Notes under the pieces: model-generated
The model's input: the letters and a program-made list of their open reading frames with translations, nothing else
Told to the model about the DNA's origin: nothing
Database searches by the model: none
Shown: positions 14,838 to 17,749 of the stretch, in pieces
How the letters are laid out: the number at the start of each line of letters is the position of its first letter
Numbering within the stretch: the stretch's first letter is position 1
IMG/VR virus record: IMGVR_UViG_3300050821_018577
Location: 32,001 to 96,000 of that record
Direction: 5' to 3' (one strand)
DNA from: a virus
DNA length: 64,000 nucleotides
Translations under genes and position numbers: made by a program

Positions 14838-14867
14838 ATCCTATTGCAAACTTACAGGCTAAGTCAA
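14838..14867 (-). promoter_or_regulatory. sigma70-type promoter
   Basis: TTGACT-18-TAGGAT on the minus strand. Confidence 0.5.
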
Positions 14868-14909: not shown

Positions 14910-15037
14910 AGTGGTTGAAGTTGAGTTTGGGAGCTTCGAAGTGTGTTTAACGCGACGGTCGAACCGCCAAAGGCACCAAACATTCCGAAGCCAAGCAAAG
15001 AGATTTTGGCAGCCAAATGCACCACCGTCAAGGAATT

Positions 15038-15115
15038 TGGAGCGCCTGACGGGATTCGAACCCGCAACCCTTCGCCCTAGGAGACGAATGCTCTGCGCAG
15101 TTGAGCTACAGGCGC
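15038..15115 (-). tRNA. atypical tRNA with 8-nt anticodon loop (CTCCTAGG; Arg-CCT-like)
   Basis: GCGCCTG/CAGGCGC acceptor, U73, CCA; GCTC/GAGC D-stem; TTCGT/GCGAA stem; GCGGG-TTCGAAT-CCCGT T-arm. Confidence 0.75.
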
Positions 15116-15120
15116 TCGGA

Positions 15121-15158
15121 GGAATATTTTTTATTCTTATAGGAACAAAAAATATTCC
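15121..15158. repeat. AT-rich inverted repeat
   Basis: GGAATATTTTTT...AAAAAATATTCC 12-bp arms. Confidence 0.7.
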
Positions 15159-15166
15159 TGAAAACT

Positions 15167-15219
15167 TGGCGCCGGAGTCCCACTTAAGGGCACGCAGCAC
15201 TAGCAGCCGCGCCTCCGGC
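15167..15219 (-). ncRNA. 53-nt mini tRNA-like element
   Basis: perfect GCCGGAG/CTCCGGC acceptor stem plus GCCA end; one hairpin and a degenerate T-arm (CCC-TTAAGT-GGG). Confidence 0.5.
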
Positions 15220-15723
15220 ACTGGCTCGCCCGGTGTGACTTGAACACACATCGTCAGCTTTAGAGGCTGCTGCACTGGCCGGTTGTGCTACAGGCGAACT
15301 GAAATCTGGAGCCGCTGGCAGATTACGAGTCTGCGGCCTCTCGGTTAAAACCGAGTGCTCTTTATCGGAAGAAACTTCCGGTCGATGCTGAGCTACAGCG
15401 GCGTGGTTGTAAACTCGATAGTTGGCCAGCGCCTTGCGCTGCTCGCCGGCGATCGGGCTCGTCGCAATTGCGGTGAGCTCGTCATTGAAGTCAGGCTCGT
15501 GCCAAGAAAAATGCGGGATGTTATTGGCGCATAGCTTTGCTTCCGCGCGGCGAAGCGACGCCAAGTGCGGCAGGCCAATCAAAACCATATTGGGAATTCC
15601 TTCTTCACAACGAAGCGAGGCAACGTGGAAGGAGGCATGAGCGGTCTGAATAATTTGCGCAGGGATGGGGATGTCGGTTCGAACGAACAGGAAAACGTAG
15701 CGGTCGTCGCTTATCTATGTCAT
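15184..15723 (-). CDS. Pth2-fold (peptidyl-tRNA hydrolase-like) protein with in-frame TAG at codon 3; frame continues through tRNA elements
   Basis: ATG ACA TAG ATA AGC...; YVFLFVRTDIP..QIIQTAHA..MVLIG..EPDFNDELTAIATSP; ORF track captured only 15184..15588. Confidence 0.75.
15222..15297 (-). tRNA. amber suppressor tRNA (anticodon CUA)
   Basis: 76-nt cloverleaf: TCGCCTG/CGGGCGA, G73, CCA; GCAC/GTGC D-stem with GG; loop CT-CTA-AA; GTGTG-TTCAAGT-CACAC. Confidence 0.85.
15307..15402 (-). tRNA. atypical Lys(TTT)-like tRNA element with D-loop hairpin insertion and 6-nt anticodon loop
   Basis: GCCGCTG/CAGCGGC, TCCA end; GCTC/GAGC; CTCGG-TTTTAA-CCGAG; GCAGA-CTCGTAA-TCTGC. Confidence 0.65.
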
Positions 15724-15913
15724 GGTCAAACTGTGCCAGAACTGCGGATTCGGTGTCAACTAAAAACCGAAGCGCCGTTCACACGCGGCGCCTCGGTCAT
15801 TACTTCCTATCCCCGCAGAGAGTCTATCATGGAACCTTCCAATTTTCGAACGGTTGCTCTTGCGCTCGCGGCCACCAGCGGACACGCAAACCGCGGAAGC
15901 CAGGGATCACGAA

Positions 15914-16077
15914 CGGCATGGCGTGGCAAGTTAAGGTACGGCGGGGTGCGGCATGGCTGCGAGTGGACAAGGAGCGGCGTGAGAAGGCGGGCGCGGTGCG
16001 GTCCCGCAAGGCATGGCAAGGCCGGGCGAGTAATGGCCTGGTGAGGCAAGGCGGGCATGGTGTGGCGTGGCGTGGTT
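15914..16077 (+). repeat. degenerate 5-nt periodic nGG(C/T)n tract
   Basis: cggca tggcg tggca...aggca tggca aggcc...tggtg tggcg tggcg tggtt. Confidence 0.8.
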
Positions 16078-16078
16078 A

Positions 16079-17749
16079 TTATTTTTCCAATTGAATTCGT
16101 CTGCCGCCGAGCGGTCGCTGAATTACTTGCGTGCAATCATAATTTTGACCGCAATGATTACAGTGACGGGAATTTGCAATGGTGACCTGCATCGTGACTT
16201 CATTGCAGTTCGGGCACCTCGGCGTTTGGTCGTTGGTCATGACAGCGGCCAATGATGTCGCGCCAGCCACTTTTTCAAGCGACGTGGTCTTTCCGGTCAC
16301 GGTGTTAGTAAAAGTGACCCGGCCAACCAGCGGCGGAGCATCATCGCCATTGCGAACCGGTGTTCTTGGTATTGGTTGACGTCCCATCATTTTCTCCGCG
16401 CGTCCGGACTTAAACAAATCGAGCAGCCCTAGGGCCCCGGCGCCGGAGAGCTCCGTTCCTACCCAGACCATGGCGTCAAGTCGGTTCGGCGATTTTTGTC
16501 CTGGCTGTGCGCAATAGCTGACCAATTCTTCTTCGAGCGCAGAAAACTCGGTACATTGAGGCTTGCCGCAACTGCAAACCAGGTGCATTTTGTTTTGCTG
16601 GAACAGCGCAAGGATCGGCTCGGCGCGCACCAGCTTGCCGCGGGATGCGCTCACATCATGGTAAGAGACGTTTTCATCCACATTGCGGATGGTCTCTTCA
16701 ACCATGTCCCCACCGTAGTTTCTCTCAGCGATGATGCGGTCAGCTGCGTAGCCGTAGTAGGTGCGGATGGCCGTGGTCGCCCAATCCCGCGGCCGCGCTG
16801 CGCGCATGGAATCGTCGTGGAGAATGTAGATATGCCCGTCCTCGCCTTCACCGCCGGTCATGATGCCTACTTCGGTCATGTTGCCGCCAGAAGGATCGAT
16901 GCCCACTACGATGCGCCGCAAACGAATCTCCTGGTCGCTGGTCAACAATGAGCCGGCATTGTAGCTGGCGGTCACGCGGCTATCCTCGATAATTTTCCGC
17001 GTCCACAACGCACCGGGAATCTCTTCGGTGTCCTCGGCCAGAATTTCTTGCCGATAGGCCAGCGAACTCATGTTGTGGGTGACTTCCTCGAGGCCTTCTT
17101 TTGAAAGATGTGGATTGGCGGAACTCGGGAAATGCAGGCACAGCCACAATGGGTCGTTCTTGTACTTCTTGAACATCTTGGCGGCGTGCTGCGGATCTCG
17201 GGCTTTGCTGGCGCTGCGCGTCTCAAGCGATGGTGGCGTGTAAATGAACACCACGTCGCCGTTGTTATCAATCAGCATGGGCGCGCCGACTTCGGTCCAT
17301 GCCGTTTCATCCATCATCTGGTATTCATCGAGAATCAAAAGGTCGGCATAATCACCGCGAAGCGTTTCGGCGTTGAACGCGGTCTTTGCCCGTATTCTGC
17401 GGTCGGTGCCGCGCTGTTCGATGATGTGTTCGGTTTCGTTTTTATACAGCCGGCCAAAGGCGATTGGTTCATCGAGAGCCAGCAGCACTTCTTTCCAGAA
17501 TTTCTTCACCTGGTCGATCGTGGGCGCGGCGTAGAGCACGCGCTTGCCTTTGAGAAATTGTTCCACAGCAAGGATTGCTGAACCAGTCGTCTTTCCAGAG
17601 CGTCTTCCAGCGCGAATGATTTTTCGTTTAAGTGGCGACCGGCAAAATCGCAACTGATATGGATTGTCCGCGGGATTGCGCAGATTGATTTTGAACTGCT
17701 GGGGCTTTGGCGCTTCGGCGTCTGGCGGAATTATGGGATTGGAAGCCAT
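16079..17749 (-). CDS. terL: terminase large subunit
   Basis: Walker A AGRRSGKT, Walker B LLILDE, RNase H-like VGIDPSG and SPNRLDA; extra C-terminal Zn ribbon. Confidence 0.95.
   Translation of the reverse strand: MASNPIIPPDAEAPKPQQFKINLRNPADNPYQLRFCRSPLKRKIIRAGRRSGKTTGSAILAVEQFLKGKRVLYAAPTIDQVKKFWKEVLLALDEPIAFGRLYKNETEHIIEQRGTDRRIRAKTAFNAETLRGDYADLLILDEYQMMDETAWTEVGAPMLIDNNGDVVFIYTPPSLETRSASKARDPQHAAKMFKKYKNDPLWLCLHFPSSANPHLSKEGLEEVTHNMSSLAYRQEILAEDTEEIPGALWTRKIIEDSRVTASYNAGSLLTSDQEIRLRRIVVGIDPSGGNMTEVGIMTGGEGEDGHIYILHDDSMRAARPRDWATTAIRTYYGYAADRIIAERNYGGDMVEETIRNVDENVSYHDVSASRGKLVRAEPILALFQQNKMHLVCSCGKPQCTEFSALEEELVSYCAQPGQKSPNRLDAMVWVGTELSGAGALGLLDLFKSGRAEKMMGRQPIPRTPVRNGDDAPPLVGRVTFTNTVTGKTTSLEKVAGATSLAAVMTNDQTPRCPNCNEVTMQVTIANSRHCNHCGQNYDCTQVIQRPLGGRRIQLEK

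Follow-up and report, generated by a model that had tools for sequence, protein, structure and literature searches.

Phages that read TAG as glutamine (genetic code 15) carry their own suppressor tRNAs, for which a timing or regulatory role has been proposed (bioRxiv 10.1101/2021.08.26.457843; PMC9523058), and suppressor tRNAs linked to theta ribozymes have been reported in recoded gut phages (PMC10879173). For the jumbo phage XacN1, targets of its suppressor tRNAs were sought by the authors and none was identified (PMC5852040), and the paper on the Ralstonia phage RsoM2USA names no target for its suppressor tRNA (PMC8504454). The closest analogue in logic to the system described here is a synthetic feed-forward loop that relies on a suppressor tRNA (PMC7969014), in which the tRNA and an amber-bearing target are expressed together and the target is made only when the tRNA is present. 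In this work we describe a phage gene for a protein of the peptidyl-tRNA hydrolase 2 (Pth2) fold, which carries an in-frame amber codon (hereafter the gate) at its third position and is followed by a gene for a tRNA with the anticodon CUA (tRNA-CUA). It lies on the minus strand of a 64,000-nucleotide stretch of viral DNA (the window), which comprises bases 32001-96000 of IMG/VR record IMGVR_UViG_3300050821_018577, a record of 178,858 bp rated complete by CheckV. The gate exists, is conserved and in frame, is paired with tRNA-CUA and has selected coding sequence behind it. We assign a probability of roughly 55% to the reading that synthesis of the enzyme would require the phage's own suppressor tRNA to decode the UAG; that the phage tRNA is the decoder is what we infer from the sequences.

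With the code-15 phages this locus would share the need of a phage gene with an in-frame TAG for a phage tRNA-CUA. In those phages, however, many genes, mostly late ones, carry TAG and the codon is no terminator, whereas here one small gene is concerned, with TAG at codon 3. A search for hepatitis delta virus (HDV)-like ribozymes found none at E <= 1. The phages with orphan suppressors, XacN1 and RsoM2USA, are of the same kind and have the same tRNA-CUA, and RsoM2USA itself carries the gated gene. The synthetic circuit is engineered, whereas the phage cassette is natural, conserved and tied to one protein family. The pairing of gate and tRNA-CUA is real and conserved and has apparently not been published: full-text literature searches found no description of an amber-gated Pth2-like gene, in agreement with a preliminary description of the locus, which knew of none.

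The synthesis of RF2 is autoregulated in prfB by means of an in-frame UGA that is escaped by a +1 frameshift and senses the gene's own product. There, too, an early in-frame stop ties the synthesis of a translation factor to the decoding of that stop; the difference is that in the phage a co-encoded tRNA would read the stop, with no frameshift and in a continuous frame. The bar minigenes of phage lambda are two-codon open reading frames (ORFs; AUG-NNN-stop) of the kind that provokes peptidyl-tRNA drop-off. The phage gate shares the two-codon ORF with them but, unlike the bar minigenes, is in frame with a downstream gene.

On the minus strand of the window, the gate (15723-15715; Met-Thr-amber) consists of ATG (15723-15721), ACA (15720-15718) and TAG (15717-15715), followed by ATA (15714-12), so that the base after TAG is A; the frame after the gate ATA begins ISDDRYVFLFVRTD. 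The reading frame is continuous, being open from the ATA behind TAG to the TAA at 15186-15184, and its first 104 codons (15714-15403) encode the Pth2-fold domain. Neither ATG nor GTG nor TTG occurs between the TAG and the first beta strand, and for this reason the table-11 ORF list begins the frame at an internal ATG at 15588 (134 aa); the identical 134-aa shortened product, a table-11 gene call, is present in a public protein collection (P0002). The preliminary description had reported this codon order, the lack of an intervening start and the ORF call at 15588, all of them correctly. The 76-nt CUA tRNA that it had placed about 400 nt downstream was found by ARAGORN and Rfam (tRNA, 57.8 bits) at 15297-15222 (minus strand), 418 nt after the TAG.

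Relatives of the locus in soil phages were gathered as 16 viral contigs, found by family alignment, 33 further metagenome loci and the locus of P0004, a narrower alignment (A2) being used to collect related loci. After the removal of duplicates between the sets, 40 distinct loci remained, namely the window and 39 relatives from viral contigs, metagenomes and assemblies, which are 40-65% identical to the window at the amino acid level. The nearest upstream in-frame stop was TAG, and never TAA or TGA, in 40/40 of these (16/16 viral contigs, 33/33 metagenome loci and the P0004 locus). An in-frame ATG was present 1-4 codons before the TAG in 39/39 loci with a complete 5' flank, one locus being cut at its 5' end, and the resulting mini-frame was always in the same frame as the main one. 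Most loci encode Met-Thr; among the two-codon mini-frames the second codon was ACA (19), ACG (6), ACC (4) or TCA (2), and the other mini-frames read MSR, MKPER, MRPDR, MRPDT, MNHEH, MIHDL and MTFT. The codon after TAG was ATT in 20 loci, ATC in nine, ATG in five, ATA in two and GTN in three; the base after TAG was thus A in 36 and G in 3 soil loci, and a purine follows TAG in all loci. A purine after UAG favours suppression over release.

The part of the gene from the TAG to the internal Met, which had been described as an N-terminal third lost by the ORF caller, turned out to be coding and under selection: in 14 non-independent pairs the ratio of non-synonymous to synonymous changes (pN/pS) was 0.275, compared with 0.229 in the remainder of the gene. 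This purifying selection argues that the stretch behind the TAG is translated.

The search was extended to GenBank phages by tblastn, which gave 32 records at 27-35% identity. Nine of these were read and eight carry the gate. The gene is unannotated in Ralstonia phage RsoM2USA (start ATG TTG TAG ATT; MG752970, 68877-69209), Serratia phage BF (ATG ACG CAC TAG AAT; KY630187, 286095-286403), Erwinia phage pEa_SNUABM_19 (ATG ACG CAC TAG AAT; MW879342, 285474-285782) and Yersinia phage fHe-Yen9-04 (ATG TCT CAC TAG ATT; LT960551, 289130-289435), and it is annotated from an internal Met only in Pectobacterium phage CBB (ATG GCA CAA TAG AAT; KU574722, 286015-286323) and Salmonella phage Arash (ATG CTG TAG AAC; OQ632216, 50257-50556). 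The other two are Acinetobacter phage ME3 (ATG ACT TAG ATT) and a 595-kb uncultured phage (LR756511; ATG ACT CAC TAG GTT). The tRNA islands of BF, CBB, Arash and RsoM2USA were scanned and each contains one tRNA-CUA, on the strand of the gated gene and 1-13 kb away from it, while in ME3 an annotated tRNA-CUA lies 0.43 kb upstream of the gene; all five gated phages checked in this respect (5/5) therefore carry one. In Klebsiella phage RaK2 the gene starts with a plain ATG, and none of the 8 tRNAs called in this phage is a tRNA-CUA. Five amber-less relatives from metagenomes were read, three of which have no tRNA-CUA in flanks of 0.8-1.5 kb; the initiator Met of the amber-less relatives aligns exactly at the codon after TAG. 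The notion that homologues would share both the stop and a suppressor tRNA is thereby borne out: a tRNA-CUA lies downstream in nearly all soil loci that carry the conserved TAG and is present in the gated cultured phages checked, and RaK2 has neither. One genome per prokaryote species was also scanned and contained no relative, which is weak evidence, since a single peptide pattern was used.

In a maximum-likelihood tree, rooted at its midpoint only, the amber state is found on both sides of the deepest well-supported split (98/94) and the plain state requires two changes. The gate is therefore probably old and would have been lost twice.

In the genome of the window the amber codon has kept its function as a stop. 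A codon-usage gene model yielded 157 confident genes, of which 80 end in TGA, 55 in TAA and 22 in TAG, and the TAG stops are followed by no more coding potential than the TAA or TGA stops. The pattern of an ATG, a few codons, a stop and a long coding frame is not enriched for TAG elsewhere in the genome. A genome-wide recoding of TAG (code 15) was rejected on these grounds, as 22/157 genes end in TAG with no coding potential continuing behind it, and the genome is not recoded as a whole. Five open segments separated by TAG at 148.5-151.2 kb of the genome have the look of a recoded gene, and were dismissed as a shadow frame rich in R, W and C. No RF-1 domain, no synthetase of the GlnRS type and no match to canonical PTH2 models was found in the genome.

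The genome contains 34 tRNAs. The tRNA-CUA of the window is a canonical one, with U1-A72, G73, U35 and an encoded CCA, as in the phage's own tRNA-Gln(CUG); because of these shared identity features, our best guess is that glutamine would be the likeliest amino acid to be inserted at the gate. Pyrrolysine was considered and rejected, since the "Pyl" label given by ARAGORN reflects the CUA anticodon only and the tRNA is a standard cloverleaf. The Pth2-like gene and tRNA-CUA plausibly share one transcript, because a pattern scan found no terminator-like site between them and the reading frame runs into the tRNAs.

Start signals point to the first ATG and not to the codon behind the TAG. In the window, a sigma-70-type promoter could be read from the sequence at 15759-15730 (minus strand), with the -35 element TTGACA at 15759-15754, an 18-nt spacer containing TG at 15738-15737, and the -10 element CACAGT at 15735-15730, which ends 6 nt before the ATG; there is no Shine-Dalgarno site in the window. 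A comparable promoter, with a -10 element ending 6-12 nt before the ATG, is present in 26/39 loci with a complete 5' flank, and a Shine-Dalgarno site 5-11 nt before the first ATG is found in seven soil loci, instead of or besides the promoter. From the position of the -10 element, the mRNA is predicted to be leaderless in the window and probably in the soil clade. A Shine-Dalgarno site 6-8 nt before the first ATG occurs in 6/8 gated GenBank phages, and in ME3 only a weak purine run was seen. The cassette promoter is directly preceded by a terminator-like hairpin of 13 pairs followed by a T run (15798-15765, minus strand; pattern scan), which parts the cassette from a terminase gene at 16079-17749.

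Taken together, these data lead to the following proposal. Ribosomes would start at the AUG at 15723, which in the soil clade would probably form the 5' end of a leaderless mRNA and in the other phages would sit behind a Shine-Dalgarno site, would decode one Thr codon and would then meet UAG. Without a tRNA that reads UAG, a dipeptide would be released and no enzyme made. Once the phage tRNA-CUA had been transcribed, processed and charged, UAG would be read as sense and the full Pth2-fold protein produced, so that enzyme output would follow suppressor activity with the logic of a coherent feed-forward loop or AND gate. Readthrough needs the mini-frame and the main frame to be in the same frame. 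The switch suggested in the preliminary description has thus gained a conserved gate, a fold, the pairing with tRNA-CUA and a genome with an unchanged code, and synthesis by readthrough only is the best reading on comparison alone; the coupling of "termination stress" to the recycling of peptidyl-tRNA, which was part of the same suggestion, is speculation.

The nature of the protein behind the gate was addressed by fold prediction and by its relatives, since Pfam gave no match at E <= 1 to the window's own protein; a six-frame search of the genome likewise gave no match to PF01981. A search of 1.8 billion representative proteins returned 806 relatives, and an AlphaFold2 model built on 26 of the relatives reached a predicted local distance difference test (pLDDT) score of 93.9. 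With this model, the best 11 Foldseek matches were all Pth2 structures or the Pth2-like Atu0240 (E 8e-6 to 1e-4, TMq 0.68-0.77, probability 1.0), the solved Pth2 structures among them being 2zv3, 1wn2, 3erj, 1xty, 1rlk and human Bit1 (1q7s). PF01981 matches 17/26 relatives weakly (best E 1.1e-5), and the family profile reaches PDB 24bt_A, "peptidyl-tRNA hydrolase", at E 0.005. The fold first read from motifs is therefore upheld by the model: the window protein has the Pth2 fold, which by itself establishes neither membership of the curated family nor activity.

The conserved residues of the domain are R12, D14, Q20, Q23, H26, A27, P74, D75 and T85. R12, D14, H26 and P74 are invariant in alignment A1, where Q20, A27, D75 and T85 are at least 90% conserved, and Q23 and D75 are invariant in alignment A2. 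These residues align to the Pth2 motifs, and the R-x-D, the Q-x-x-H-A and the Asp of the second motif, which are shared along with the fold with the archaeal and eukaryotic Pth2 proteins (PF01981; 2zv3, 1wn2, 3erj, 1xty, 1q7s), are kept. The phage family differs from the latter in its low identity (11-18%), in the absence of the GK Lys, in a loop that is two residues shorter, and in being phage-borne and linked to tRNA genes. Candidate activities of the enzyme would be the hydrolysis of peptidyl-tRNA or of N-blocked aminoacyl-tRNA, perhaps of the suppressor itself.

Several observations weigh against readthrough by the phage suppressor as the sole route to an active enzyme. The Lys of the GK motif is reported to be catalytic in archaeal Pth2; in the phage family it is replaced, with the loop shortened by two residues and the Lys positions falling on A19/Q20 in the profile alignment to 24bt_A, so that the activity of the enzyme is uncertain, as is, in consequence, the rationale for the gate. 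Strong suppression would be expected to carry a cost, since TAG ends about 14% of the phage's genes, and weak suppression would mean that the enzyme is made at a low level only. The co-occurrence of gate and tRNA-CUA is not perfectly clean, as the amber-less P0073 and P0033 loci adjoin odd tRNAs with CUA-containing loops, and the loci are related, so that the counts represent non-independent events. Finally, the sole RNA evidence is a 199-nt contig from a soil RNA library (14920-15118), which covers a second tRNA of the cassette (see below) and could be DNA carry-over.

The gate might also serve as a sensor of host termination, with near-cognate host tRNAs passing the UAG when RF1 is scarce or inhibited during infection and tRNA-CUA having a separate job. 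UAG is read by RF1 only, the stop lies at codons 3-6, where the peptide is very short and termination therefore inefficient, and UAG followed by A is a weak termination context, all of which would fit such a sensor. The gate, however, goes with tRNA-CUA in every cultured phage tested, and RaK2 has neither; moreover, no gene with an RF-1 domain was found in the genome, in which no search for an RF1 inhibitor was made. We therefore consider a sensor of this type unlikely.

According to another explanation, the gate is a minigene followed by reinitiation: termination at the two-codon leader would depend on RF1 and the same ribosome would restart at the adjacent AUA, AUU, AUC, AUG or GUG, with no part for the suppressor. 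The codon after TAG in the soil clade is almost always ATH, ATG or GTN, all of them start or near-start codons, and the alignment of the initiator Met of the amber-less relatives to this codon is what reinitiation would predict. Still, GTA and GTT also occur after the TAG, and four phages (BF, Erwinia pEa_SNUABM_19, CBB and Arash) have AAT or AAC there, codons that are unable to initiate translation, and contain no canonical start from this point to the first strand. Reinitiation requires neither the same frame nor a TAG, yet TAG is found in all 48 loci and the frame is kept wherever the 5' flank is complete, and the link between gate and tRNA-CUA would be left unexplained. For these reasons we regard it as quite improbable.

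The soil clade has, besides its probably leaderless start, a second peculiarity, namely a stop-less ORF that is fused in frame to tRNAs. The median length over which the frame remains open after the conserved C-terminal Tyr or Trp is 36 codons (at least 22 in 37/39 loci), against medians of 15.5 and 14 in the other frames. In nine loci only 0-3 nt separate the last conserved codon from the first tRNA, and ORF and first tRNA are in phase in 22/33 cases. Tails of translated tRNA (..PVAQ.., ..ASKA.D.G..P.G.AN..) are seen in the majority of public gene calls for the family. In the window the family's C-terminal Tyr is at 15411-15409 (minus strand), and no in-frame stop occurs between the natural C-terminus and the tRNA, the frame continuing for 74 codons to the TAA at 15184 through two tRNA-shaped elements. 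The first of these is a tRNA-like cloverleaf of 96 nt (15402-15307, minus strand; minimum free energy fold of -36.4 kcal/mol) that begins two codons after the Tyr, within the ORF and in its frame. Its acceptor stem of 7 bp is perfectly paired and an extra hairpin is inserted into its D arm; a loop of 6 nt (UUUUAA), a T arm and a terminal TCCA complete the structure. The cloverleaf was called neither by ARAGORN, with introns allowed and thresholds relaxed, nor by Rfam; its counterpart in locus L006 (2804-2881) scores 39.4 bits as a tRNA. A 9-nt spacer, the tRNA-CUA and a mini-tRNA-like element follow, all in frame.

The mini-tRNA-like element (15221-15167, minus strand; 55 nt, identified from its fold) lacks a D arm. 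Its acceptor-like stem is combined with a 7-bp hairpin, whose loop of 7 nt has CUA at the centre, and with a small T-like hairpin, and it ends in CCA. The TAA at 15186-15184 that closes the Pth2-like frame lies within this element. Such an element after the first tRNA is also found in L008, L024, L028, L012 and L030, and in L006 and L010 it has a GGCA tetraloop instead of the CUA loop. It is followed by a second tRNA at 15115-15038 (minus strand; ARAGORN; Rfam tRNA, 54.2 bits), with an 8-nt anticodon loop, CU-CCUA-GG.

As the ORF has no stop where the protein naturally ends and reads on into the tRNAs, cleavage by RNase P would leave a non-stop mRNA ending at the natural C-terminus, and translation of uncleaved RNA would append a tRNA-encoded tail to the protein. 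Ribosomes that have passed the gate would run into the tRNA precursor, which could feed back on tRNA maturation or on protein stability. In mitochondria, the 3' end of an mRNA can be set by the excision of an abutting tRNA, with the stop completed by polyadenylation. In the soil clade the 3' end of the mRNA would likewise be set by tRNA excision, with the difference that a sense codon precedes the tRNA, either that for Tyr or Trp or one lying one or two places further on. To our knowledge, an ORF that lacks a stop and continues in frame into a tRNA has no precedent in bacteria or phages. Since the cultured phages have ordinary stops, this gene end is not part of the core mechanism.

On the basis of this gene end, the gate might be thought to act in cis in the soil clade: ribosomes that pass the UAG would go on translating into the first tRNA and disturb the way it folds or is processed, so that the suppressor would limit its own maturation and the protein would be secondary. 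The long open frame past the conserved end and the phasing of the first tRNAs are in favour of this scheme, with the caveat that shared ancestry inflates the locus counts. Against it stands the strong conservation of the protein (806 homologues, pN/pS near 0.25). The cultured phages, in addition, keep the gate but have an ordinary stop at the end of the gene and their tRNA-CUA 0.4-13 kb away; control in cis can therefore not be the general function, and we give little credence to it.

An artefact or a dead gene, that is, an assembly error, a recent nonsense mutation or a TAG that is sense throughout (code 15), is scarcely conceivable. The public gene call P0002 is truncated, and a sequencing run on independent DNA (X3) has no coverage of 15520-15746 and hence of the TAG (a further run, X1, probably represents the source sample). 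Yet the amber has been kept across deep divergence in 48 loci, 40 of them in the soil set, which makes the assembly error raised at the outset untenable, and purifying selection acts behind it. TAG terminates 22/157 genes without coding potential after it, and early TAGs are not enriched elsewhere.

A broader scheme would join readthrough by the phage suppressor with the features of the soil clade. The suppressor would license a Pth2-fold enzyme acting on the suppressor or on by-products of suppression, ribosomes entering the tRNA precursor would hold the suppressor level in a narrow window by feedback, and the odd RNAs (the CUA-loop mini-tRNA without a D arm, the tRNAs with 6- or 8-nt loops and the tRNAs with two anticodon-like arms) would have roles of their own in the circuit. 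We put it forward as a tentative and rather doubtful extension.

Many large phages with the standard code carry an amber-suppressor tRNA of no known purpose, and the gated gene provides a concrete, conserved client for it, one that escaped annotation because gene callers drop or truncate the gene. The pairing can be tested at the bench, as it occurs in cultured phages of Serratia, Erwinia, Yersinia, Pectobacterium, Salmonella, Ralstonia and Acinetobacter. If readthrough by the phage tRNA is true, this would be natural control of a gene by a dedicated suppressor tRNA in a genome with an unchanged code, a possible intermediate toward full stop-codon recoding and, for synthetic biology, a component that could be used as it is.

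Some further features of the tRNAs deserve mention. The 8-nt-loop tRNAs of the window (CCUA) and of L017 (2950-3023; UCUA) might decode four-base codons. That they read the gate in this way was considered and rejected, since the frame would shift and the anticodons do not match (CCUA against UAGA in the window, UCUA against UAGG in L017). Five loci contain tRNA-CUA genes of 96-105 nt (L007, 2949-3051; L014, 2934-3034; L009, 3360-3463; L054, 1645-1749; L061, 1773-1868), whose variable region includes a second "GAGCA plus anticodon-like arm" with loops such as UUUUAAC. These genes resemble tRNAs in which an amber and an ochre-like anticodon arm would be alternatives to each other. Outside the window, at 134529-134602 of the genome (plus strand), a tRNA with the anticodon UCA, of the opal-suppressor type and labelled SeC by ARAGORN, was detected, and the phage may thus carry more kinds of stop-reading tRNA.

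Also outside the window, at 16856, 109496 and 115324 of the genome (plus strand), three TAG-terminated genes are immediately followed by an in-frame ATG and a long ORF. Suppression at these junctions would fuse neighbouring proteins, for example one of 837 aa with the next 231 codons. In-frame junctions of stop and ATG were counted for TAG (3/22), TGA (3/80) and TAA (2/55), a difference that is not significant, with numbers too small for a conclusion.

In the surroundings of the cassette, two more sigma-70-like promoters were found just downstream of the tRNAs (14838-14867 and 15003-15031, minus strand), followed by about 400 nt without a credible ORF. Between the mini-tRNA-like element and the second tRNA, an AT-rich, near-perfect palindrome with a 17-bp stem occupies 15120-15160, with Rfam matches at chance level only. 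The interval between the terminase gene and the cassette (15915-16078, minus strand), which is without a notable ORF, is C-rich and G-poor and consists of repeated units resembling CCACGCC, CCATGCC and CCTTGCC.

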